From Aulosira sp. ZfuVER01 (GTDB lineage: Bacteria; Cyanobacteriota; Cyanobacteriia; Cyanobacteriales; Nostocaceae), in assembly GCA_034530615.2 (NCBI GenBank), contig JAVRCV020000032.1, forward strand, positions 128,001 through 192,000: DNA of 64,000 nt, read 5' to 3'. How positions within the stretch are numbered: the first letter of the stretch is position 1; every line of letters starts with the position of its first letter. The translations under genes were made by a program, and so were the position numbers. A model generated the notes under the pieces. It saw nothing but the letters and a program-made list of their open reading frames with translations, made no database searches and was not told the DNA's origin. Positions 3,371 through 61,326 of this stretch are shown piece after piece.

Positions 3371-4185
3371 CGCTCCTGTTCAATTTTGGCAAGTGCTTGC
3401 TTAAGCGGAATAGCCTTACCTTCAAAAGTCTGGGTAGCTTTAAAGGCACGAATAGATTCTTCTTCATCCTTATCCATAACTGCTCGCTCAAAAGGAATAG
3501 CCTCAGATATATACGTCTGAGCAGCTAAATAGGCACGAAGAGATTCTGATTCTTCTAAAATTATTTCACGCTTTTTTTTCAGAATTGGTGTTTTGTGTTG
3601 CAAAAAACCTTCAAGCTGAATTGCACTGCAACCCATGTCAAAGGCAAACTCAATAGGAGAACCTCCACCTAATTGGGGTTCGTAAAATCCTAGTGTTTCA
3701 TAAAACCCAGTAGCAAATGTGATTGCAGCACTGTCCCCTATTGAATTATTCATGCCTATTACATAATCAATATGTTGGACAATTGCCTCTGCTTGAAATT
3801 CAGAGTAACAGGCATTCAGCAACACACATTCTATTTGCTTAGAAAACAGACCAAAAAGTCCAGCCAGCGCTTCTCCTGTTACTAGTTTTCCTTTTCCAAT
3901 TTCATGCTCAAACAATAATCCTTGTTTCCCTAGGCCATGTCCACAAAAATGGACAATGTGTGGTTGATACTGTAACAATGCTCGACGAATATCTTTTGGA
4001 CGTACGGCAGAATAAGGCTGGAGTAAAAAATTATCGCGATGTTTAGACCCTCGCAAAGCTTCTTCAATCTCACGCACTTCTTCACCCAAACGTAGGCGTG
4101 CTGTTTGGCTGGGATTTGCTGGTAGAACCAAGATCGTTTTTTTCACGTAATTAAACATTAAAAATGTGAATATCAGCGCATTCAC
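3367..4185 (-). CDS. CHAT (caspase-like) domain protein with C-terminal antitoxin-like tail
   Basis: ANP..LRL.EEVREI, VHFCGHG, LLNACYS (His-Cys dyad); tail has two E..RA..A....AIP...A motifs. Confidence 0.75.
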   Translation of the reverse strand: MNALIFTFLMFNYVKKTILVLPANPSQTARLRLGEEVREIEEALRGSKHRDNFLLQPYSAVRPKDIRRALLQYQPHIVHFCGHGLGKQGLLFEHEIGKGKLVTGEALAGLFGLFSKQIECVLLNACYSEFQAEAIVQHIDYVIGMNNSIGDSAAITFATGFYETLGFYEPQLGGGSPIEFAFDMGCSAIQLEGFLQHKTPILKKKREIILEESESLRAYLAAQTYISEAIPFERAVMDKDEEESIRAFKATQTFEGKAIPLKQALAKIEQER

Positions 4186-4383
4186 ACTTTTTTACCACTC
4201 TCACCAAATAAAAATCTGTAATCCTTGTTTCAAAGGAATTTTTGCAATATCAAAACTGTTAACGATTAATATCAGCACATACCAGATACACAAAGAATTA
4301 CTACTCTGATTTTCAGAGTATGAGTGTGTGTTTTTTTATAACTTAAGAGTGATTTAAATAGGATGGAATATAAACCTACTTTC

Positions 4384-5391
4384 TCATCCCAGACCTAGTA
4401 AATCTGCACGAGGTTTAAAGGTTTCAATTTGGCGGATTTTTTCGTATAGTTCTTGTTCTTCCGGACTAATAGTTTTTGGCGTAACTATTTGAATTTCCAC
4501 CAACTGATCGCCACGTTTACCACTGTCATTAGGGTAGCCTTTATTTGCTAACCGAAATCTTTGACCAGATCTAACTCCTGGGGGAATGGTCATTTTCACA
4601 GGGCCATCAAGAGTTGGTGCTTCTACCTGTCCTCCCAAGACAGCTTCACTGGGAGTTACGGGTATCTGGCAAAATATATTAGAACCGTCTAGTTTAAATA
4701 AGTGATGTGGCTCGACGGTAATTTTTAAGTATAAGTCACCGCCGCCAATGCCTTGGTCACGTAGTCGGATAGTTTGACCTGTGACCATACCAGCAGGCAT
4801 AGTTACTTCTAGCGATCGCCCATCTTCCAGGCGAATGCGTTCGTTACCACCTACATAAGCTTTTTCTAATGGTAGCGTCAATCTGGCTTCTATATCCCGA
4901 CGGGCGGGACGTGGTTGGCTTTTGGGTACTGTGTACTCTACTCTGCTTTTAGGGGAACGGAACGGATCGCTATTTGTGCTGCTAGTTGAACCATTTCTGG
5001 TGTCTTTACGACCAACACCAACACCGATTACTTGATTAATAAAACTTTCAAAATCTGCAAATTGGCTAGGATCTACTTCTTGAGTGCTGTTGCGGTTGTT
5101 AGCACGATTATCCCAAGCTTTACCTTTTGGCGTCTGTTTGTTGGCAAAGCCTTTTTGCTTCCAGTAGCGGCTAAATTGGTCATACTGCGATCGCTTGGCT
5201 GGATCGGAAAGGACTTCATAAGCCTCACCAACAACCTTAAATTTTTCCTCTGCTGCTTTGTTTCCAGGATTCAGGTCAGGGTGATACTGTCGTGCTAAAC
5301 GCCGATAAACCTTTTTAATTTCCTCGCTTGAGGCTTCTTTAGGTACTCCTAAAATTTCGTAGTAATCGCGAAAATTCTGCAAATTTTGCAT
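4384..5391 (-). CDS. dnaJ: DnaJ-class chaperone (CbpA-like, no Zn finger)
   Basis: [11 protein letters not shown] motif, DnaJ C-terminal domain; follows dnaK. Confidence 0.92.
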
Positions 5392-5562
5392 AGTTCAGTT
5401 ATTCAACTTTAAATTTTAGATTTGAGATTTTGGTAATAGGTAATGGATTCTGTCAGTTGTCAGCTAATAACAAATTACCAATTACCAATAACCAAATCCG
5501 AATTTTGAAGCAATTTCACTCGCTTTTCTGGAATACTCAATCCATACGGTAGCTCAGGAGTA

Positions 5563-7824
5563 CTACAACCAATCATCATCATCGTCATCCCAGTTGTCCT
5601 GGTAGCTTGGACGAGGTGGTTTGCGAGAAGACCGATTATCAGAGGAGGAGGAACGATTATCTCTGCCAAAGTCTCTGTTAGAGTCTCTGGTAGAATCCCT
5701 GCCATAATCCCTGTTAGAGTCCCTGCCATAGTCCCTTGTAGAGTCTCTACCATAATCTCTGGTAGAATCCCTGCCATAATCCCTGTTGGCGTCCCTGCCG
5801 TAGTCCCTGGTAGAATCCCTGCCATAATCCCTGTTTGAGTCCCTGCCATAGTCTCTGGTAGAATCCCTGCCATAATCCCTGTTGGAGTCTCTGCCAAAGG
5901 AATCACGATCCCAGTATGAATCTTTGGGATAATCGCGTTCTCGTTCTTTGTCGCCACCAGTAAAGATGTCGCGAATCGTACCAAATAAGTCGTCGTCTTC
6001 GTCCTCAGCATAATACTGACGAACTTCCCGGTTTAGCTCATACAAAGCATCTTGCAGGTCGGCGTAAGATTGGTCAATGCCGCGATCGTCATTGTCTTTT
6101 AAAGCGTCCTTCAGTTCCCGACAGATGTTGTCAATGCGTTGGCGGCGGGTGCGGGCAAACTGCATCCCAAACTCTAACGCTACTTCTCTAAGTTGTCGTT
6201 CGGCTTGGCCAATCAACCCTTCAGAACGAGTCCGCTTTTCTACTCGTTCTTTGCGTTCCCGGTCGATATCAGCATATTTTTGAGCATCCTGAATCATCCG
6301 GTTTACTTCTGACTCACTCAACGTAGAAGCACCTTGGATGGTTATACTTTGCTCTCTACCAGTGGTTCTATCCAGGGCTGTTACTTGTAAAATCCCGTTA
6401 GCATCAATATCAAATGACACCTGAATTTGGGGAATACCTCTCGGCGCTGGGGGTATGCCATACAACTTGAAACGTCCTAAAGACTTGTTATTTGTTGCCA
6501 TTTCCCGTTCGCCCTGAACTACGTGGATTTCCACAGTATTCTGGTTATTTTCTGATGTGGAGAAGATATCAGAACGGCGTACTGGGATGGTGGTATTGCG
6601 GGGAATCAATTTTTTCATGACACCCCCGATGGTTTCCAAGCCTACAGATAGGGGTGTTACATCCAAAAGCAGCACATCTTTGAGTTCGCCTGCCAGAATA
6701 CCAGCTTGAATTGCTGCGCCTACTGCTACTACTTCATCGGGGTTGACGTTTTCATTGGGTTCTATGCCAATTAGGTCACGCACTAACTGCTTAACCATTG
6801 GAATTCGGGTGGAACCACCTACTAACACCACTTCTTCAATGTCTGTAGGTGAGAGTCCAGAATCTTTTAATGCTCGTTTGACTGGAGTCCGCAACCTTCC
6901 TACTAAATCACCGCACAAATCCTCAAATTGGGAACGAGTGATGCGAGTTTCTAGATGTTTGGGGCCATCCTCAGTCGCGGTGATAAAAGGTAAATTAATA
7001 TCGGTAACGCTGACAGCAGAAAGTTCGATTTTGGCTTTTTCCGCAGCTTCCATCAGACGTTGTAAAGCTTGGCGATCGCGTCTTAAGTCTACACCTTCTG
7101 CTTCTAAAAATTGCTCTGCTAACCAATCTACAATTTTTCTGTCAAAATCATTACCACCAAGCTGAGTATCTCCACTAGTAGCTTTAACTTCAAAAACTCC
7201 ATCACCAACTTCTAGAATCGACACGTCAAAGGTACCGCCACCTAAATCGAATACTAAGATAGTTTCCGTACTACCACGATCCAATCCGTAAGCTAAAGAA
7301 GCGGCGGTAGGTTCATTGAGAATCCGTAAAACATCTAAACCAGCAATTCTGCCAGCATCGCGAGTGGCTTGCCGCTGAGAATCATTAAAATAAGCAGGAA
7401 CCGTAATTACTGCGCCGGTTACTGTTTCGCCCAAGTAGGTGCTGGCATCATCTGCCAATTTCTTCAGCACCATTGCCGAAACTTCTTCGGCGGCAAATTC
7501 CTTATTCAACCGGGGACAAGCAATCTTAATATTACCAACTTCGTCTTTGCGGATAGTATAGGGTACACGCTTTGATTCTGGACTCAGCTCGCTATACCTG
7601 CGCCCAATAAAGCGTTTCACCGCAAAAAAAGTATTTTGGGGATTCAGGACAGTTTGTCGCCGTGCCATTTGTCCCACTACCCTTTCGCCTTCTTTACTAA
7701 AGCCAACAACGGAGGGGGTTGTGCGCATTCCTTCTGCATTGGCAATCACCACCGGCTTGCCACCCTCCATCACGGCGACTACTGAGTTGGTTGTACCCAA
7801 GTCGATGCCGACTACCTTGCCCAT
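5563..7824 (-). CDS. dnaK: Hsp70 chaperone DnaK paralog with repetitive C-tail
   Basis: [27 protein letters not shown]. Confidence 0.97.
5660..5900 (-). repeat. 24-bp coding tandem repeat (RDYGRDS[N/T]) in dnaK tail
   Basis: About nine imperfect units such as GTAGAATCCCTGCCATAATCCCTG on the + strand. Confidence 0.9.
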
Positions 7825-8129
7825 GCGTTACTCTTCTCCTAAATGTGTCTTACTATTACTATATTTATTATGATTGGGCGAGACTGCTTCTAGCTTTTTG
7901 CTCTGGGATGAAAACCCCTCAACGGTATAATAGTCATTATTAGGTGAGGTTTTAGCGAAAGAAGCTAGTTGCAAGACTAGGATAACATTGAGGATGGTTG
8001 GTGTGTCCAAAGACTATCCATACCTGTTTTCCAAAGATTTTACTGGTTAATAGTCAAAAGTCATTTCTCTCCCTCATCTCCTCCTCCCCTCCTGTCTGCA
8101 AACTTTGATATTGCGACTATATTTAAACA

Positions 8130-30421: not shown

Positions 30422-30828
30422 AATTAGTCTTGCAGTCAATTTTGAGTATTAGGCTGTAAAGTATTGAATTTGCACGCTGAATCATAAGTTTAGCCCGAGT
30501 GTTTAACAGCAAACATTGCAATATACCTCTTACATAAGTCGATTTTGTGGATAGCAAACCACAGATGAACACCGATATTTATCTGTATGCATCTGTGATG
30601 ACTTTTGTCAGATTTTTGCAAGCAGTCTAATATTTAAGCAGATCGCCTGAATGACATTCATGTATAGATAACATCCTATTTTCAGTGTATACACCGGAGC
30701 CATTTATGATTGACAGTTAATAAAATTACTATATTCACGTCTGTGAGTGTGGCTAATCAAAGTTAGTCACTGTTGCTGATTGTTGGGAAGGTGTACGGAT
30801 AACCCTTCTGGGGGTTTTCCTGCATGAT

Positions 30829-30855
30829 AGGCATCTCTTGTAGATGCCTTTTTTT
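30829..30855 (+). terminator. Rho-independent terminator
   Basis: AGGCATCT-CTTGT-AGATGCCT followed by T-run. Confidence 0.75.
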
Positions 30856-49923: not shown

Positions 49924-50718
49924 CTATTGACTAAAAACTAAACTCGGCCAGTCAATTTGGCGATAATAGCGTGTCATGTCGTCAAATTTTCTCAGTTCAA
50001 CGCGATCAACTAAAAATCCTGGTGAGTTTAACAGCCATTGTTGATTCAAATTAGAGAGCATGGTACTAAAACCTGTACGGTCTAGTTCGGGTGAAACTTC
50101 TCCAAAATAACCTAATGTAATGTGGGCAGTGAAGTGATAATGTTGTTCAATACCCAAAGCCATTAACTGGGGATTTTGATAAACAGTGCGGCGAAATTTA
50201 ATCACCTGTTCGTAGCAACGCTCATCCTGCGGTACTAAACAAACTCCGATAGCTCTGGGCATGACTATCAATCCCAGTACTTGCCAATATATAGGTTGAC
50301 GATCGTTTGCGATCGCTTTTTGATAGTCCTGAAATATTTCAGCCAAGCAAGAACATAATTGCTGTTCAAATTCGGGGTTTTTCTCGCAGGCGTCACGGAA
50401 AGCACTATCCCAAATCAAATCTGCTAACGTCAAATGAAAGCTAGTATCTGGTACAGGCACAATCAAATCACTGTTGGCAGACAACTGTAACAATTGTTGT
50501 TGATAACTTTGTAACTGGGAGTAGAAAGCAGAGTTTTCTGTTGCTTCTACCGCCGGTGGGGTAATTAGCGTGTAGCCAGGAAATGGTACTGCTTGTCTCA
50601 ACCCGGAATCTGGCTGAAATTTAGAAGACTCCTGAATATGTTGGACTTGGGATCTGTAAGCTTCTGGTAGCATCATTCGTGCTACCCGATTCAAGTAAGT
50701 TTGATAATTGTCGTCCAA
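49924..50718 (-). CDS. 2H phosphoesterase (DUF1868-like)
   Basis: Two HxT motifs (FHLTL, AHITL). Confidence 0.8.
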   Translation of the reverse strand: MDDNYQTYLNRVARMMLPEAYRSQVQHIQESSKFQPDSGLRQAVPFPGYTLITPPAVEATENSAFYSQLQSYQQQLLQLSANSDLIVPVPDTSFHLTLADLIWDSAFRDACEKNPEFEQQLCSCLAEIFQDYQKAIANDRQPIYWQVLGLIVMPRAIGVCLVPQDERCYEQVIKFRRTVYQNPQLMALGIEQHYHFTAHITLGYFGEVSPELDRTGFSTMLSNLNQQWLLNSPGFLVDRVELRKFDDMTRYYRQIDWPSLVFSQ

Positions 50719-50950: not shown

Positions 50951-50954
50951 AAGG

Positions 50955-51037
50955 CGGAAGATGGAGGAATCGAACCCCTAGGTGTTACCCCACCCCGGTT
51001 TTCAAGACCGGTTGCCGACCATTCAGCGGCATCTTCC
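50955..51037 (-). tRNA. trnS: tRNA-Ser(UGA)
   Basis: Cloverleaf, long variable arm, G73. Confidence 0.9.
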
Positions 51038-51044
51038 ATTCAGG

Positions 51045-51119
51045 GGTGTCTGACGGGGCTTGAACCCGTTATGACTGGTTCCACAAACCAGCACCGCGAC
51101 CACTTTGGCTTCAGACACC
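51045..51119 (-). tRNA. trnH: tRNA-His(GUG)
   Basis: Anticodon GUG, G-1:C73. Confidence 0.9.
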
Positions 51120-51124
51120 ACCAG

Positions 51125-51198
51125 TGGAGCCAAGGGGATTTGAACCCCTAACCTTCCGCTTGCAAGGCGGATGCTCTAGCCAGTTGAGCTATGGTCCC
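51125..51198 (-). tRNA. trnA: tRNA-Ala(UGC)
   Basis: Anticodon UGC, G3:U70. Confidence 0.9.
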
Positions 51199-51201
51199 AT
51201 T

Positions 51202-51276
51202 TGGCAGGAGTGGTAGGACTTGAACCTACATCGGTCGATTTAGAAGATCGATGCCCATCCATTAGGCGACACTCCC
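51202..51276 (-). tRNA. trnR: tRNA-Arg(UCU)
   Basis: Anticodon UCU, encoded CCA. Confidence 0.9.
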
Positions 51277-51282
51277 ATAAAT

Positions 51283-51358
51283 TGGTAGCCCTAGCAGGGA
51301 TTGAACCTGCGACTTCCTCTTTGTAAGAGAGGCACTCTCCCCACTGAGTTACAGGGCT
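51283..51358 (-). tRNA. trnV: tRNA-Val(UAC)
   Basis: Anticodon UAC, encoded CCA. Confidence 0.9.
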
Positions 51359-51363
51359 ACGAG

Positions 51364-51435
51364 AGCGAGTGATGGGATTTGAACCCATGCGCTGAGTGTG
51401 GCGCACTCAGATGCTAGCCACTACATCACACCCGC
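51364..51435 (-). tRNA. trnG: tRNA-Gly(GCC), atypical anticodon loop
   Basis: GCGGGUG acceptor, U73; loop GC-GCC-AC (C33). Confidence 0.75.
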
Positions 51436-51458
51436 ATCGAAGAACCTATACGGTTCAG

Positions 51459-51529
51459 AGCGATCGACGAGACTCGAACTCGTACCGTGAGTTTGGAAGA
51501 CTCTGATGCTGCCTTTACACCACGATCGC
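51459..51529 (-). tRNA. trnG: tRNA-Gly(UCC)
   Basis: Anticodon UCC, U73. Confidence 0.88.
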
Positions 51530-51533
51530 ATTA

Positions 51534-51607
51534 AGCTGGTAACAGGAATTGAACCTGCAACCTACTGATTACAAGTCAGTTGCTCTGCCAGATTGAGCTA
51601 CACCAGC
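51534..51607 (-). tRNA. trnT: tRNA-Thr(UGU)
   Basis: Anticodon UGU, canonical arms. Confidence 0.92.
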
Positions 51608-51610
51608 ATT

Positions 51611-51688
51611 TGGTAGCGGAGGTGGGATTTGAACCCACTACGTGAAGGCTTATGAGACCTCAGAGCGCACCATAGCTCTATCTCCGCG
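51611..51688 (-). tRNA. trnM: tRNA-Met(CAU), C1:U72 mismatch (initiator-like acceptor)
   Basis: Anticodon CAU, encoded CCA. Confidence 0.82.
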
Positions 51689-51689
51689 A

Positions 51690-51763
51690 TACCCCTGACT
51701 GGATTTGAACCAGCAACTTCCAAATTTTAAGTTTGGCACCTCTTCCAATTGGGTTACAGGGGC
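51690..51763 (-). tRNA. trnL: tRNA-Leu(UAA), intronless, short variable arm
   Basis: Anticodon UAA, A73. Confidence 0.85.
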
Positions 51764-51769
51764 AAGTTT

Positions 51770-51844
51770 TGGTGGGCGCTACAGGAATTGAACCTGTGTG
51801 AGCCTGATTAAGAGTCAGGAGCATAACCGTTCTGCCAAACGCCC
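51770..51844 (-). tRNA. trnK: tRNA-Lys(CUU)
   Basis: Anticodon CUU, encoded CCA. Confidence 0.88.
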
Positions 51845-51850
51845 TAGTTT

Positions 51851-51925
51851 TGGTGGGTCGCCCAGGGGTTGAACCTGGATAAGTCTACTTAAAAGGTAGC
51901 TGCATATCCGCTCTGCCAACGACCC
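51851..51925 (-). tRNA. trnK: tRNA-Lys(UUU)
   Basis: Anticodon UUU, encoded CCA. Confidence 0.88.
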
Positions 51926-51929
51926 AAGT

Positions 51930-52007
51930 TGGTACTCCCGACAGGATTTGAACCTGCAACAATTCCGTCCCTCAAACGGAAGCGTTTACCAATTTCGCCA
52001 CGGGAGC
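51930..52007 (-). tRNA. trnL: tRNA-Leu(GAG), short variable arm
   Basis: Anticodon GAG, encoded CCA. Confidence 0.85.
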
Positions 52008-52012
52008 ATCAG

Positions 52013-52086
52013 TACCCCTGACAGGAGTCGAACCTGCAAAACACTCGGTCTAAACGAGCGACGGTTTCCAATTACGTCACAGGGGC
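52013..52086 (-). tRNA. trnL: tRNA-Leu(UAG), short variable arm
   Basis: Anticodon UAG, A73. Confidence 0.85.
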
Positions 52087-52089
52087 AAA

Positions 52090-52166
52090 TGGTCGGGATG
52101 GCAGGATTTGAACCTGCAACCTTCAGCTCCCAAAGCTGCCGCGCTACCAAGTTGCGCCACATCCCG
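52090..52166 (-). tRNA. trnP: tRNA-Pro(UGG)
   Basis: CGGGAUG acceptor, anticodon UGG, CCA. Confidence 0.93.
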
Positions 52167-52167
52167 T

Positions 52168-52248
52168 TGGTACTCCTGACGGGAGTCGAACCCGTACAAA
52201 ATAGACTGTTTTTGAGACAGCCGCCTCTTCCAATTGGGCTACAGGAGC
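52168..52248 (-). tRNA. trnL: tRNA-Leu(CAA)
   Basis: Anticodon CAA, CCA. Confidence 0.85.
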
Positions 52249-52254
52249 ATAATT

Positions 52255-52330
52255 TGGCTGCCCTGCCAGGGTTTGAACCTGGAATCTCCTCGTTCAAAGC
52301 GAGGGATGTTGCCAGTTACACCACAGGGCA
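52255..52330 (-). tRNA. trnQ: tRNA-Gln(UUG)
   Basis: U1-A72, anticodon UUG, CCA. Confidence 0.9.
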
Positions 52331-52335
52331 ATGAT

Positions 52336-52412
52336 TGGCTGCCGAGGTTGGGGTCGAACCAACATCTCCGTGATTCAGAGTCACAGCGACTTTCCAAGTC
52401 GTCCACTCGGCA
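52336..52412 (-). tRNA. trnQ: tRNA-Gln(CUG)
   Basis: U1-A72, anticodon CUG, CCA. Confidence 0.88.
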
Positions 52413-52417
52413 ATGAA

Positions 52418-52493
52418 TGGCTGCCCAAGTAGGAATCGAACCTACAACAAAGCGGTTAACAGCCGCTTGCTCTGCCAATTGAGCTATGGGGCA
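52418..52493 (-). tRNA. trnN: tRNA-Asn(GUU)
   Basis: Anticodon GUU, CCA. Confidence 0.92.
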
Positions 52494-52502
52494 ATGTGCC
52501 AG

Positions 52503-52577
52503 TCCCCCAGATCCGGATTGAACGGATGACCTCCTGTTCTTCAAACAGGCGCTACTACCAACTGAGCTACCAGGGGA
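52503..52577 (-). tRNA. trnF: tRNA-Phe(GAA)
   Basis: Anticodon GAA; one U:U mismatch in acceptor. Confidence 0.85.
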
Positions 52578-52582
52578 TAAGG

Positions 52583-52656
52583 CGAGAACGGAGGGACTTG
52601 AACCCCCACTCTTCAGGTTCGTAATCTGAGATGTTATCCAGTTACACCACGTTCTC
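52583..52656 (-). tRNA. trnR: tRNA-Arg(ACG)
   Basis: Anticodon ACG. Confidence 0.87.
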
Positions 52657-52662
52657 ATAAGG

Positions 52663-52747
52663 CGGAGAGAGAGGGAATTGAACCCACAGTGGACTTGCAT
52701 CCACGACTGTTTAGCAAACAGCTTGCCCTGCCAATAGCAATCTCTCC
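52663..52747 (-). tRNA. trnS: tRNA-Ser(GCU)
   Basis: Anticodon GCU, long variable arm, G73. Confidence 0.88.
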
Positions 52748-52751
52748 ATGA

Positions 52752-52832
52752 TGGGTCGGGCTGGAATTGAACCAGCAACGCAAACGCGGCGGTTTTACAG
52801 ACCGTTGCCCACACCAATAGGCGAGCCGACCC
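52752..52832 (-). tRNA. trnY: tRNA-Tyr(GUA)
   Basis: Anticodon GUA, variable arm. Confidence 0.9.
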
Positions 52833-52850
52833 ATATATGTTTGAGTAATT

Positions 52851-52922
52851 ACTTGAGATTTCTGGGTGAAATAAAGGAATGGAGAGACCAGTTTTCCTGT
52901 TCTCTGCCATCCCAACTCAAGT
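52851..52922 (-). ncRNA. Structured non-tRNA insert within the array
   Basis: Nested stems ACUUGAG/CUCAAGU, UGGG/CCCA, AUGG/CCAU, AGAGA/UCUCU with a pyrimidine-rich bulge. Confidence 0.45.
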
Positions 52923-52925
52923 CAG

Positions 52926-52999
52926 CAGTGCCGACGGGGATTGAACCCGCAATCTCCTGCTTGAAAGACAGGTGGCTTTACCAATTTGCCTACGGCACC
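52926..52999 (-). tRNA. trnE: tRNA-Glu(UUC)
   Basis: Anticodon UUC. Confidence 0.9.
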
Positions 53000-53010
53000 A
53001 AGATTGAGAT

Positions 53011-53152
53011 TTCTACCACGCGCAAGTTTGAGAAGCTGTTTTTAACAGCCTCCAAGTTTGGTTTGGCGGAGGCTGTAGGAGTCGAACCTACTTCGGTTTT
53101 ATAGACCGATTAACCAGTTTGTAAGCTTCTGATGTTGGGGCACGTGGTAGAA
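53011..53152 (-). ncRNA. Circularly permuted tRNA-like RNA (YrlA Y-RNA-like)
   Basis: Variable arm, T arm (GUAGG-UUCGACU-CCUAC) and AGCCUCC-G-CCA precede the acceptor 5' strand GGAGGCU; enclosed by AGAAGCU/AGCUUCU and a 13-bp terminal stem. Confidence 0.7.
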
Positions 53153-53223
53153 CGCAGAGACTAGGATTTGAACCCAGACCAAAGGTTTTGGAGACCCTTA
53201 TGCTGCCGTTACACTATCCCTGC
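53153..53223 (-). tRNA. trnW: tRNA-Trp(CCA)
   Basis: Anticodon CCA, G73. Confidence 0.87.
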
Positions 53224-53226
53224 ATT

Positions 53227-53327
53227 TGGTCGCAGCGGCGAGAGTTGTAGACGCGGAGCGGCTTCCCGAAGGGTACTCGCATAATCTCGGTTATGAGCCG
53301 AGTACCTTGCCGTTAGGTTACACTGCA
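53227..53327 (-). tRNA. tRNA-CAU (Met or Ile2) interrupted in the T-loop by a 26-nt insertion; possible pseudogene
   Basis: CUCGG-CUCAUAA-CCGAG anticodon arm, CCA; T stem GCGAG/CUCGC encloses the insert. Confidence 0.78.
53248..53275. mobile_element. Small dispersed repeat with TA duplication
   Basis: TA-GACGCGGAGCGGCTTCCCGAAGGG-TA. Confidence 0.75.
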
Positions 53328-53332
53328 ACGTT

Positions 53333-53407
53333 TGGAGTCCGAGGTGGGAATTGAACCCACGATGATTGATTTTGCAGACCAACGCCTTTCCACTTGGCTA
53401 CTCGGAC
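53333..53407 (-). tRNA. trnC: tRNA-Cys(GCA)
   Basis: Anticodon GCA, U73, CCA. Confidence 0.92.
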
Positions 53408-53412
53408 ATTTT

Positions 53413-53489
53413 TGGAAGCCTCGACGGGAGTTGCACCCGCTTCTCTCTGACTGAGAATCAGAGCGACTTTTCTATTCGTCCACAAGGCT
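53413..53489 (-). tRNA. trnE: tRNA-Glu(CUC), atypical T-loop
   Basis: Anticodon CUC; T-loop UGCAACU; U73; CCA. Confidence 0.78.
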
Positions 53490-53492
53490 ACA

Positions 53493-53568
53493 CGGGGATG
53501 ATGGGATTTGAACCCACGTTCTTTCGCTCGACAGGCGACTGCTTTTAACCGGACTAAGCTACACCCCC
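53493..53568 (-). tRNA. trnD: tRNA-Asp(GUC)
   Basis: Anticodon GUC, G73. Confidence 0.9.
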
Positions 53569-53583
53569 ACGTTGGGTGGCAAT

Positions 53584-53771: not shown

Positions 53772-54308
53772 TTACTCATTCTCGGTTAGGCGTTGTGCAT
53801 TCCAAAACTGTTCGGCAAATGCAACCGCTGGGTGGATTGGCGCTTTAGGCTTGGTTTTGAGTACCATTCCTGCTTCATGTAGAAGGCGATCGCTCTTAGT
53901 TGAGTTGCACTTGTCACACGCTGTTACAACGTTGTCCCAGGTATGCTGTCCACCTTTGGAACGCGGAATCACGTGGTCGAGGGTGAGACGTTTTGTGCTA
54001 CCGCAGTATTGGCAGGTATGGTTATCGCGCTTGAGTACTTCACGACGGTTGACAGGCGGTACTTTCCAATGACGTTCGGGATTGCCAACAGTTAGACGGA
54101 TGTGTTCGGGAACTTGTAGTACGATGCTGGGAGAGCGAACTTCCCAAAGCTTGGTGCTGCCGAACTCCAACGACTCTGCTTGACCTGTAACTAACAGCAC
54201 AACAGCTCGTTTAATGTTGATGCGTGCTAATGGTAGGTAGTTTTTGGAGAACACTACCACCGAATTTTGTAATATCTGTGGTTCCTGAGTTTGTGGTTGA
54301 GCTTGCAT
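53772..54308 (-). CDS. HNH endonuclease
   Basis: RDNHTCQYCG, TLDHVIP.SKGG..TWDNVV.AC..CN..K; RBS GAGGAG. Confidence 0.93.
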   Translation of the reverse strand: MQAQPQTQEPQILQNSVVVFSKNYLPLARINIKRAVVLLVTGQAESLEFGSTKLWEVRSPSIVLQVPEHIRLTVGNPERHWKVPPVNRREVLKRDNHTCQYCGSTKRLTLDHVIPRSKGGQHTWDNVVTACDKCNSTKSDRLLHEAGMVLKTKPKAPIHPAVAFAEQFWNAQRLTENE

Positions 54309-58860: not shown

Positions 58861-60147
58861 CTATTGACTGTCCGGAAGAGTCTCAAGTAAGCTACCTGCA
58901 AATGCGATCGCCTCTTGTGGCGTTGAGATTTTTCCTTCAGCTTGCGCTATGGCAATTTCGGTAAGTAGTTTGCCAATCAATGGTGAAGGTGGGACTTTTA
59001 ATGCTATAATGATTTCCTTCCCACTCACGATTGGAGCGGGATGAGCGACCAGATCATCAGGGTTCAGGTAGCGGCCGATCAAAGGTGCGTAAACACTAAG
59101 TTGTTTATCGCCAGGCATCGCCCCTACCAGATTATCGCAAGCTAAGGCAAACGCTACAGCAGTACTAAATCCAGTGCCTGCTTCCTGAAAGAGAAAATAT
59201 TGTTCTCTCAAAGACATATTGGCTAGTTTTAGCCGGGGGATCAGTCTTAAAACTGTAGTTACAGATTGGATTTCAGCACGGCTGTAGGTGAGTTGCATTA
59301 GCTCTATTTCCGCAGCTTCGGGATCGGGGTGGACGAGACAAGTAAGTTTAGCAATACCTAAGCGAGTCGTTTTGATGGTATCGCGGATGTAATCTCGCAG
59401 TTCCACCCCCAAAGGCTGCCAATTTTTGGCGATGAAGGCGGCGGCGGTATCAACTGCTGCTAGTTTTTGAAAGCTTTCATCTGTGGCATTTTTCCAGAAA
59501 GGTGCAAGTACACCATCTTTCCACGCAGCTGCGATCGCAGGTGTACCTTCAGGAATTGCCAACAAATAGCCAATTTCTACTCGGACTCGTTCTGCGGCTA
59601 CTTTTATGATGTGTGATGCTAAAGAACGAATCGTTTCTTGGGTAGCTGGCTCAATCGTCAAACCAAGTTGGGCGGATTGGCGATAAGCTCGCAATAATCG
59701 TAAAGGATCGTCTTCTAAGTTGGCAGGTGATACCATGCGCAACACACCCTGTTGTAAGTCAGATAAGCCTTGCAGGGGATCGATGATTTCTTGGGTATAG
59801 GGATCGTAAGCGATCGCATTGACTGTAAAATCCCGTCTGTGCAAATCGGTTTCTAAACTGGCTCCTTCCTGTTGAGCAATGTCAACTGTAGCGTTGGGAA
59901 AGACTACCCGCGCAATTTGCCTTTCGGGATCGAGTAATACAAAACCTGCTTGATAATGTTGAGCGATCGCACGTGCTACTTTGACTGCATCCGTGGGGAT
60001 GACAAAATCTAAATCTAGGTATTCACGACTTCTACCTAAAAGCGCATCTCGGACTGCACCACCTACCATGTATGCAGGTTGTGGCAATAATGCCAGACTA
60101 AAGGGCCAAGTTTCGGGAGCTAAGGTAGAAGAAACTGAAGGATGCAT
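58861..60147 (-). CDS. tRNA nucleotidyltransferase (probably CC-adding)
   Basis: VGGAVRD..LG....DLD, DLHRRDFTVNA, DDPLRLLRAYR. Confidence 0.9.
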   Translation of the reverse strand: MHPSVSSTLAPETWPFSLALLPQPAYMVGGAVRDALLGRSREYLDLDFVIPTDAVKVARAIAQHYQAGFVLLDPERQIARVVFPNATVDIAQQEGASLETDLHRRDFTVNAIAYDPYTQEIIDPLQGLSDLQQGVLRMVSPANLEDDPLRLLRAYRQSAQLGLTIEPATQETIRSLASHIIKVAAERVRVEIGYLLAIPEGTPAIAAAWKDGVLAPFWKNATDESFQKLAAVDTAAAFIAKNWQPLGVELRDYIRDTIKTTRLGIAKLTCLVHPDPEAAEIELMQLTYSRAEIQSVTTVLRLIPRLKLANMSLREQYFLFQEAGTGFSTAVAFALACDNLVGAMPGDKQLSVYAPLIGRYLNPDDLVAHPAPIVSGKEIIIALKVPPSPLIGKLLTEIAIAQAEGKISTPQEAIAFAGSLLETLPDSQ

Positions 60148-60233
60148 TGTAATAAAAATCAACCCAGCAACTAATGAATATAAGTTTGCCTTAAGCTAGA
60201 TTAACAATAAAGGTTCCTGGAGTTGGTTCTATT

Positions 60234-60669: not shown

Positions 60670-61326
60670 TTGACTACTGAACTTCAAAATCTTGCAGTTA
60701 CACAATATAGTTTGGCACTGCACACTACAACGCCTGAATTAGGTTTGGCAATTAATAACTTTGCAGGTGACTCTCGCGCTCAGGTATGGAATTTAGGGCG
60801 CGATCTGTCTAGTCTAGTACATCAATACTTAATTGAATTTATCCAGCCACAAACGTGGTCAGATATAGCATTTCTGGCGGTAGCCAAAGGGCCTGGTGGC
60901 TTTACAGGAACGAGGATTGGCGTTGTTCTAGCTAGGACTTTAGGACAACAATTAGAGATTCCTGTATTTGCGATTTCCACTTTAGCCGCAGTGGCTTGGT
61001 CAGAAATAGGCAAAGGCCAAAAGACAGATGCGATCGCTATCCAAATGCCAGCTCAACGAGGTCAAGTTTTTGGTGCGATTTATCAACCTAGCCTTGATAA
61101 TTTAGGACTCACAGCTTTATTACCAGATACTGTATTGACGCCAGAAGCATGGCAGGAAACTCTAGCAACTTGGCAGACAACTTACCAACTAATTGAAGCA
61201 AAATCTGCATTAGCGGCGACGGTAACAAGTATTTTGGAACTAGCTTATTTAGATTGGCAACAAGGCAAGCGTCCTCATTGGTCTGAGGCTTTACCTTATT
61301 ATGGGCAGCATCCAGTAGAAGTTTGA
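60670..61326 (+). CDS. tsaB: tRNA threonylcarbamoyladenosine biosynthesis protein TsaB
   Basis: LALHTT, AVAKGPGGFTGTRIG, ALPYYG. Confidence 0.92.
   Translation: MTTELQNLAVTQYSLALHTTTPELGLAINNFAGDSRAQVWNLGRDLSSLVHQYLIEFIQPQTWSDIAFLAVAKGPGGFTGTRIGVVLARTLGQQLEIPVFAISTLAAVAWSEIGKGQKTDAIAIQMPAQRGQVFGAIYQPSLDNLGLTALLPDTVLTPEAWQETLATWQTTYQLIEAKSALAATVTSILELAYLDWQQGKRPHWSEALPYYGQHPVEV

Follow-up and report, generated by a model that had tools for sequence, protein, structure and literature searches.

We analyzed a 64,000-nt stretch of DNA from Aulosira sp. ZfuVER01 (contig JAVRCV020000032.1, positions 128,001-192,000; hereafter the window, in whose numbering coordinates are given unless another contig or locus is named) and describe here a 142-nt element on its minus strand (53011-53152) that is embedded in an array of spare tRNA genes. 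ARAGORN called 28 tRNA genes in this minus-strand array (50953-53569), and 25 of the 28 were confirmed by Rfam; despite these calls on both sides, no tRNA was called by ARAGORN inside 53011-53152. The element occupies the gap between a tRNA-Trp(CCA) gene (53153-53223, minus strand), whose 3′ end abuts its first base, and a tRNA-Glu(UUC) gene (52926-52999, minus strand), which lies 11 nt downstream; both genes were identified by ARAGORN and Rfam. An HNH endonuclease gene (53772-54308, minus strand, Pfam HNH) is located upstream of the array. Such a gene is conserved upstream of the long tRNA arrays of cyanobacteria (L-operons) and is co-induced with them (PMC8421152). By its gene content, which includes the upstream HNH gene, the array in the window looks like one of these L-operons.

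A preliminary description of this DNA had proposed that the minus strand carries parts of a tRNA in circularly permuted order, enclosed by a long stem. All of the parts that it listed are present in the claimed order, and the minimum free energy fold of 53011-53152 (-50.9 kcal/mol) gave the same layout. For 200 dinucleotide shuffles the mean was -28.0 kcal/mol (sd 3.6), and none folded as well as the element (z -6.4). The RNA can be described as a handle, made up of a long stem with an internal loop, and a tRNA-like head. Its termini form a 12-bp helix followed by a 9 x 7 internal loop. The 5′ strand of the terminal stem (53140-53151; UUCUACCACGUGCCCCAACAUC) pairs with the 3′ strand at 53012-53023, and 10 of these 12 pairs are changed on both sides across the family; many are G.U pairs, and their frequency fixes the coding strand as the minus strand. 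The 5′ side of the internal loop (53131-53139; CCCAACAUC) has the family consensus CCYNAY, a motif that recurs upstream of RL2, the gene discussed below, and the 3′ side (53024-53030; CAAACUU) contains a nearly invariant AACUU. Both the fold and covariation support the inner stem that follows, formed by AGAAGCU (53124-53130) and AGCUUCU (53031-53037).

Within the handle, a conserved single strand (53110-53123; UACAAACUGGUUAA) with a nearly invariant UACA leads into the head; the mean frequency of its commonest letter is 0.87 among 47 distinct copies. In paralogues with the normal tRNA order, UACAUAC at this place pairs as an acceptor-like strand. A variable-arm-like hairpin of 5 bp with a 7-nt loop (53093-53109) comes next. 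Covariation extends to all five of its pairs (among the versions are UCGGU/ACCGA and CUGAU/AUCAG); its loop shows no conservation. The T arm (53075-53091; GUAGG-UUCGACU-CCUAC) is invariant in the 16 copies found by BLAST, and two of its five pairs covary when paralogues are included. Directly after the T stem, as in tRNA, stand the acceptor 3′ strand AGCCUCC, G73, and CCA (53064-53074); the sequence R-CCA is present in 43 of 48 distinct copies. A linker (53054-53063) then closes the acceptor helix and is, from the precedent of Mycobacterium smegmatis YrlA, a predicted site of RNase P cleavage and 3′ trimming. Its length of 10 nt, given in the preliminary description, holds only for the window copy and one relative; in most relatives the linker is 4-5 nt long. 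The acceptor 5′ strand GGAGGCU (53047-53053) follows, with A3-U70 here and G3.U70 in 18 of the 48 distinct copies. The "mini D-like hairpin" that was proposed after it can indeed be drawn for the window copy at 53038-53046 (GUUAAAAAC); the GUU/AAC pairing on which it depends is not conserved, most relatives having GAAAAAAC, and we therefore regard this segment as an A-rich linker that replaces the D arm.

The element is widely conserved. Full-length copies with 74-89% identity were found by BLAST in 16 of 201 genomes of the same family, that of the window included, and the 3′ end of tRNA-Trp is the upstream flank in nearly all homologues. A wide pattern scan with one genome per species returned 51 loci (loci are cited here by L numbers), of which 44 hold a full-length element that scores at least 93 bits with a covariance model built from the first 16 homologues. 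The carriers belong to several cyanobacterial orders and include Nostoc, Calothrix, Tolypothrix, Fischerella, Cylindrospermum, Microseira, Argonema, Leptolyngbya, and Oculatella. Six non-cyanobacterial loci (L037, L048, L052, L069, L076, and L077) were rejected as chance matches with unrelated flanks and no model match. RNAalifold applied to the 16 homologues recovered the same 36 pairs. In an alignment of 55 distinct sequences, 96.4% of the cells pair and 22 of the 36 pairs are changed on both sides; none of 500 shuffles reached these values, and slid controls paired at 31-45%. This alignment was fitted to the covariance model, which favors the structure. The preliminary description had named a decayed tRNA-Ser fragment, with neither conservation nor covariation in related arrays, as the outcome that would undo its proposal. 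Given the 16 and then 44 full-length copies and the compensatory changes in 22 of the 36 pairs, both conservation and covariation are present, and the RNA is hence not a decayed fragment. The segment 53011-53152 is a real, conserved, covarying noncoding RNA gene at a fixed place right after tRNA-Trp.

A search of a plasmid collection returned the element in one record only, from Kovacikia, and the Anabaena model array therefore probably lacks it, provided that its plasmid is in that collection. A 2.3-kb contig of a relative, present in two metatranscriptome runs of one study, spans the whole stretch, which shows that the array is present and does not speak to transcription, ends, or cleavage. 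Some copies deviate from the common form. In Planktothrix paucivesiculata (L043:490-672), most of an ordinary tRNA stands in place of the 5′ part of the element, with the fusion point in the T arm, and the acceptor hairpin and 3′ handle are retained; this chimera of a tRNA and the 3′ part of the element is a recombinant or decaying copy. In one lineage (L020 / L049) the acceptor hairpin loop is inverted, its sequence being the exact reverse complement of the usual one (AAGUUUGGU versus ACCAAACUU), and the CCA is thereby removed. Several lineages carry an insertion, UACCCUKCGGGAAGC..., in short and long forms, in the T loop of the element (L011, L017, L050, L053, L056, L058, L059, L064, L071, and L072). 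The same insertion is found in other tRNAs of the arrays and in the tRNA-like RNAs that precede the canonical Ro60 gene (further loci with it are L088:2850-2900 and the upstream tRNA-Trp of L042), and it behaves as a reusable T-loop module.

The handle is the most conserved part of the element. Within the family its unpaired bases are as conserved as its stems: the mean frequency of the commonest letter in CAAACUU is 0.98 among 47 distinct copies, and UACA hardly varies. Exact patterns for the 5′ and 3′ handle each occur once in the window, where none is expected (for the 5′ pattern, from 100 shuffles). Model searches of the same arrays also detected weaker paralogues, one each in L036, L055, L059, L070, and L023 and three in L074. 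These share the terminal stem, the internal loop (5′ GUGCCCUNAY and 3′ YNAACUUGCAY), the inner stem AAGCU/AGCUU, and then UACA; their inserts differ, being either permuted tRNA-like modules with a full D arm or a hairpin only. Two paralogues with a D arm (L074:1846-1911 and 2047-2109) match Rfam YrlA with 41 and 36 bits (E 1e-7 and 3e-6), and these matches span model positions 24-84 only, the tRNA-like core. Since the handle alone is retained in some arrays (L023; L074:1699-1790), the handle rather than the acceptor end is suggested to be the constant, selected part. Among 401 genomes sampled across the phylum, the 5′ handle pattern was found in 25 and a reversed-pattern control in none. The internal loop was compared with kink-turn, loop E, tetraloop-receptor, hammerhead, and bulge-helix-bulge structures, none of which fits.

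The genome of the window contains four copies of the handle pattern, three of them within 1.7 kb on another contig, C68. The handles on C68 embed normal-order tRNA-like cloverleaves (Leu-UAA-like and Lys-UUU-like), a permuted tRNA-like module, and a non-tRNA insert. Downstream of them on the same strand is a gene for a 476-aa protein, which we refer to as RL2. The cluster (C68:95000-110000, locus L125, in which it covers 4004-8085 on the minus strand) comprises a mini-tmRNA that consists of only the 84-nt tRNA-like domain of a tmRNA (8002-8085, 43.8 bits), at least five handle RNAs with different inserts, a bL12 paralogue (5695-6087), RL2 (4004-5434), and further open reading frames of 69, 239, and 277 aa together with a ThiF/E1-like gene. 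Pfam TROVE misses RL2, in which Pfam detects only a vWA domain. A single-sequence phmmer search matched residues 71-440 to the Ro60 of a Thermus phage (9l5y/9kop, E 1e-4), and a profile of 49 diverse RL2 relatives matched Ro60 9nen (4.8e-16), 9l5y (2e-14), Xenopus Ro60 1yvp (1.1e-12), and Deinococcus Rsr 2nvo (1.7e-7). Eleven of the 49 relatives match Pfam vWA_Ro60. An AlphaFold (AF2) model built on the 49-relative alignment had a predicted local distance difference test score (pLDDT) of 91.8 and a predicted template modeling score of 0.83; an earlier model from a shallow alignment (pLDDT 57.8) was not used. With this model as query, the top 12 Foldseek matches were all Ro60/Rsr chains, aligned over the full length with template modeling (TM) scores of 0.61-0.71. 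By profile and predicted structure, RL2 is a Ro60 homologue with a Ro60 fold. It belongs to a Ro60 clade of 1054 cluster representatives at E ≤ 0.001 that are annotated only as "vWA domain protein".

Handle RNAs and RL2 are genetically linked. All 20 loci examined have handle motifs in the 1.5 kb upstream of RL2, and a minimal handle of 77 nt is found in the RL2 5′ leader. The linkage extends to a 595-kb record of an uncultured phage (L146, LR756511.1:277741-295234), which has an RL2 homologue at 48% identity with three handle matches just upstream; three other proteins of the cluster, the 277-aa, the ThiF-like, and the 69-aa one, have homologues there as well. RL2 is present in 16 of the 16 genomes with the array element and in 75 of the 201 overall; the effective sample is smaller than 16 because the element genomes fall in nine genera. 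In the phylum-wide sample, 24 of the 25 pattern-positive genomes have RL2 compared to 24 of the 376 pattern-negative genomes. A second covariance model, R2, built only from 16 handles of RL2 leaders, matched the window element end to end (53015-53149, 27.6 bits, E 1.9e-4), with the head as an insertion, and this was its sole match in the window. By its genetic linkage to and co-occurrence with a Ro60-family gene, the element is a candidate Y RNA in the broad sense of a Ro60 partner.

The preliminary description, which saw no Ro60 gene in the window, had recommended a search of the genome for Ro60/TROVE. The genome has two Ro60-family genes, neither of them in the window; one, RL2, is the gene to which the handle is genetically linked. 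The other is a canonical TROVE gene (PF05731), a type present in 104 of the 201 genomes and absent from 5 of the 16 element genomes. Upstream of it on contig C15 (L002:2600-3192, minus strand) are tandem RNAs in normal tRNA order (acceptor, D arm, T arm, and a CCA-like end) in which the anticodon region is replaced by a hairpin with GACGAA/GCCGAAG motifs; their match to Rfam tRNA is weak (37.7 bits). The canonical TROVE locus of a relative gave a YrlA match of 30 bits. R1, a model that contains the handle, had no match at canonical TROVE or RtcB loci. The canonical TROVE protein was thus ruled out as an obligate partner, being absent from those 5 of 16 genomes and having different, tRNA-ordered RNAs at its own locus.

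The head of the element does not make it a decoding tRNA. As the preliminary description stated, there is no anticodon arm, and the window copy also has no D arm, so that a cloverleaf cannot be drawn. No known Rfam family covers the element at either the gathering threshold or E ≤ 10, and the only tRNA-type match that Rfam gave for it was to tRNA-Sec (17.7 bits, E 0.83). CUUACAA and the hairpin loop were considered as anticodons and discarded, there being no pairing partner and no conservation of the loop. A short tmRNA-like frame starting at GCU (AYKLV...) is not conserved and is frameshifted in several copies.

With regard to aminoacylation, the identity set of tRNA-Ser by the Escherichia coli rules comprises G1-C72, G2-C71, A3-U70, G73, and a long variable arm, and that of AlaRS and tmRNA comprises G3.U70 and A73. 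The SerRS determinants named in the preliminary description are present in the window copy, where the acceptor set G1 G2 A3 / G73 equals that of the two tRNA-Ser genes of the array; they are not retained across the family. Among the 48 distinct copies, 25 have A3/G73-CCA (27 counting two without CCA), 5 have G3/G73, and 13 have G3.U70 together with A73, the Ala-like set. R-CCA is kept while the rest of the loop varies, and five copies are without CCA. Because the Ser identity set is not conserved across copies, conserved serylation of the element is unlikely on these sequence grounds. The CCA itself may be partly inherited, since CCA with an A-rich spacer after it is also encoded by about half of the ordinary tRNAs in the array. 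In M. smegmatis, RNase P cleaves YrlA, whose acceptor helix is likewise 7 bp long, and CCA is added to this RNA in vivo (PMC4201824); by analogy, opening of the acceptor loop into two pieces by RNase P is plausible here.

We consider it probable, from the sequence comparisons above, that the element is a Y-RNA-type, YrlA-like RNA whose handle is bound by RL2, rather than a tRNA that takes part in decoding. Several observations weigh against this assignment. The Infernal search against Rfam that the preliminary description had called for gave no YrlA or Y_RNA match at E ≤ 10 in 52830-53340, and the 69-bit gathering threshold of RF02553 was not reached. The Ro60-binding motif GNCGAAN0-1G (PMC4201824) is absent from the 5′ strand of the handle. 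The tie between handle and RL2 consists of co-occurrence and synteny among related, non-independent genomes, and RL2 was not detected in one pattern-positive genome (G046). A search of the whole genome with R2, in which 150 of 5156 candidates were scored, listed the two strongest copies on C68 and not the window element. The invariance of the acceptor and T stems is partly imposed, the pattern scan having required both. Finally, the ThiF/E1-like, 277-aa, and 69-aa genes are conserved beside RL2, also in phage, and any of their products could be the true partner. On an explanation built on this last point, the handle would be bound by another component of the RL2 cluster or the array (the 277-aa or 69-aa protein, the E1-like enzyme, an RNase, or RtcB) or would serve as a processing and stability cassette, with the Ro60 linkage reflecting a shared mobile island. 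Besides those conserved neighbors and the missing motif, this explanation can point to the co-regulation of rtcB with the Anabaena array (PMC8421152) and to the gene for a 2H phosphoesterase after the array in the window. We nevertheless judge it rather unlikely, for it is Ro60 proteins that are known to bind terminal bulged stems of RNAs whose genes lie immediately upstream of their own (PMC4201824, PMC12135203), a minimal handle stands in the leader of RL2 itself, and R1, handle included, found nothing at RtcB or canonical TROVE loci.

Another explanation places the function in the head. RNase P cleavage at G1 and trimming to expose G73-CCA would yield a two-piece tRNA mimic that is charged by SerRS, or by AlaRS in the G3.U70/A73 lineages, and serves, whether or not Ro60 is involved, as decoy, sensor, or donor of an amino acid. 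This develops the preliminary description, which had suggested a two-piece, serylatable RNA that could be a decoy or repair substrate. Its 7-bp acceptor helix stacked on a perfect T arm, the retention of R-CCA in 43 of 48 copies, the acceptor set shared with both array tRNA-Ser, the 13 Ala-like copies, and the in vivo cleavage and CCA addition reported for M. smegmatis YrlA (PMC4201824) all fit such a mimic. The division of the copies into 25, 13, and 5 means, however, that no single amino acid can be the selected product; moreover, 5 of 48 copies have no CCA and one lineage has the inverted loop, no D arm is available to orient the variable arm for SerRS, the CCA may owe something to inheritance from ordinary array tRNAs, and the arrays that keep only the handle (L023; L074:1699-1790) suggest that the handle is what is selected. 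We therefore find this account improbable. More speculative is a combination of the two ideas, in which a two-piece, CCA-ended, charged mimic (Ser in A3/G73 lineages and Ala in G3.U70/A73 lineages) sits on a Ro60-like ring and reports or buffers tRNA charging or tRNA-cleaving toxins during translational stress. If true, spare-tRNA operons would contain a further, new layer of regulation, but we hold this reading to be quite doubtful. It is extremely improbable that the element has no function and is what decay has left of a tandemly duplicated tRNA-Ser, its inverted repeat being due to chance. The order of 3′ half, CCA, A-rich spacer, and 5′ strand is what the junction of a head-to-tail tRNA dimer would look like, and the window copy does lack a D arm and an anticodon; yet copies in 16 of 201 and 44 further genomes of several orders, at the same array position and with 74-89% identity, already contradict decay, as do 22 of 36 compensatory pairs and nearly invariant unpaired motifs.

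If the element is a Y-type RNA held by RL2, a sequence of events can be proposed. By homology to the trn operon of Anabaena, it would be transcribed with the array and induced by translational stress. Trimming of the tRNAs on either side by RNase Z and RNase P would then release an RNA of 142-153 nt with paired ends, its 3′ end being defined by 5′ processing of tRNA-Glu. The handle would dock on RL2 in the way that the stems of Y RNAs dock on Ro60. The head, with its T arm on a 7-bp acceptor helix closed by the R-CCA loop and its long variable arm, would shield and stabilize the RNA or tether RL2 to enzymes that handle tRNA, and RNase P may cut it at G1 and so produce a CCA end, by analogy with M. 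smegmatis YrlA. Overall, the Ro60-like quality-control particle would receive a tRNA-shaped RNA at the very time at which the spare tRNAs and the genes for RNA repair are turned on. The Anabaena array is induced by translational stress and co-regulated with rtcB (PMC8421152), and this co-regulation, along with the 2H phosphoesterase gene after the array in the window, makes a setting of RNA repair and quality control fitting.

The 2H phosphoesterase (LigT-like) gene (49924-50718, minus strand) lies directly downstream of the array and was recognized through weak matches to PF08975 (23.9 bits) and PF02834 (20.7 bits). A gene of the CCA-adding/poly(A) polymerase family (58861-60162, minus strand) and one of the TsaB/TsaD family (60670-61326, plus strand) are also near, and with these three genes the neighborhood of the array is rich in RNA processing functions. 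Within the operon (50953-53569) the types of 3′ end are mixed: about half of the tRNAs encode CCA and then an A-rich spacer and the others do not. Between tRNA-Cys and tRNA-Trp is a tRNA-Met(CAU)-like gene (53230-53327, minus strand) with a 31-nt insertion in its T loop (UACCCUUCGGGAAGCCGCUCCGCGUC...), which is the T-loop module described above; it was missed by ARAGORN and scores 40.1 bits with Rfam tRNA, and relatives have an ordinary tRNA-Met there. The 91-nt gap between tRNA-Tyr and tRNA-Glu (52834-52924, minus strand) contains a strong hairpin (plus strand: GGAAUGGAGAGACCAG...); it matched no family. Farther away, the nitrogen-stress small RNA NsiR9 (30727-30849, plus strand, Rfam 102.7 bits) is consistent with a heterocyst-forming cyanobacterium.

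The findings bear on two questions, namely why bacterial Y RNAs carry tRNA-like modules and what exactly long arrays of spare tRNAs do. Because a Y-type RNA is placed inside the array, it would be made only when the array is on and would be freed by the enzymes that process tRNA. A particle of this type would tie Ro60-type RNA surveillance to the translational-stress response, which is testable in tractable Nostocales. The analysis also exposes a large Ro60 clade with an RNA handle of its own, both of which are missed by the standard TROVE and YrlA models. Natural variants provide ready-made controls: A3-U70/G73 versus G3.U70/A73, copies with or without CCA, and handle only.

Among known systems, circularly permuted tRNA genes such as those of Cyanidioschyzon merolae and Thermofilum resemble the element in that the T arm, the acceptor 3′ strand, and CCA precede the acceptor 5′ strand. 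They differ in that the element has no terminal bulge-helix-bulge, anticodon, or D arm and yields no complete tRNA after rejoining; its trailer is also not conserved. Bacteria are not known to have the splicing endonuclease. Two-piece permuted tmRNA likewise has a permuted tRNA-like domain, in which the 5′ strand of the acceptor comes after its 3′ strand and CCA, and some members of the element family have G3.U70/A73. No tmRNA was called by ARAGORN or Rfam, however, the window copy has A3-U70, the GCU frame is not conserved, and the topology of any coding part would be wrong. We found no description of the element in the articles searched on permuted tRNA, tRNA-like RNAs in arrays, or cyanobacterial Y RNA and Ro60, although the supplements of PMC8421152 and PMC4201824 may list related loci. 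The trn operon of Anabaena sp. PCC 7120 (PMC8421152, PMC10272220) is an array of the same type with an upstream HNH gene; PMC8421152 was searched for "tRNA-like", "permuted", and "Y RNA", with no match.

The closest solved relative of RL2, by the single-sequence search given above, is the Ro60 of Thermus phage phiLo (PMC12135203; PDB 9KOP and 9L5Y). In phiLo, the Y-like RNAs Yrl1 and Yrl2 are encoded upstream of the Ro60 gene (PMC12135203), just as the RL2 homologue and handle RNAs occur together in a phage. Unlike the handle RNAs, Yrl1 and Yrl2 were identified through CGAA motifs (PMC12135203), the sequence identity of the phiLo protein to RL2 is low, and there is no tRNA array. More generally, the genes for Y RNAs stand upstream of those for Ro60, and binding takes place through a bulged stem at the RNA terminus (PMC4201824, PMC12135203). 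The YrlA RNAs that partner Rsr/Ro60 (RF02553; Salmonella and M. smegmatis; PMC4201824) share with the element the pairing of the ends in a long stem, a T arm followed by a loop-closed acceptor-like helix, and the occurrence of several paralogues beside a Ro60-family gene. The M. smegmatis member of YrlA has a 7-bp acceptor and is cut by RNase P (PMC4201824). Of the YrlA-type topology assigned in the preliminary description, the T arm, the loop-closed acceptor helix, and the paired ends are present in the window copy; the D arm is replaced there by the A-rich linker and is present in paralogues on the same handle, two of which match YrlA. In other respects, too, the element departs from YrlA: it has its own conserved internal loop, its predicted partner belongs to a Ro60 clade that Pfam TROVE misses, and the window copy is in a tRNA operon and not beside a Ro60 gene. 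The element, then, resembles a YrlA-type Y RNA yet fails RF02553 on score and Ro-binding motif and has a linker in place of the D arm. What sets it apart from the known YrlA-type Y RNAs is that it would place a Y-type RNA inside a stress-induced tRNA operon.

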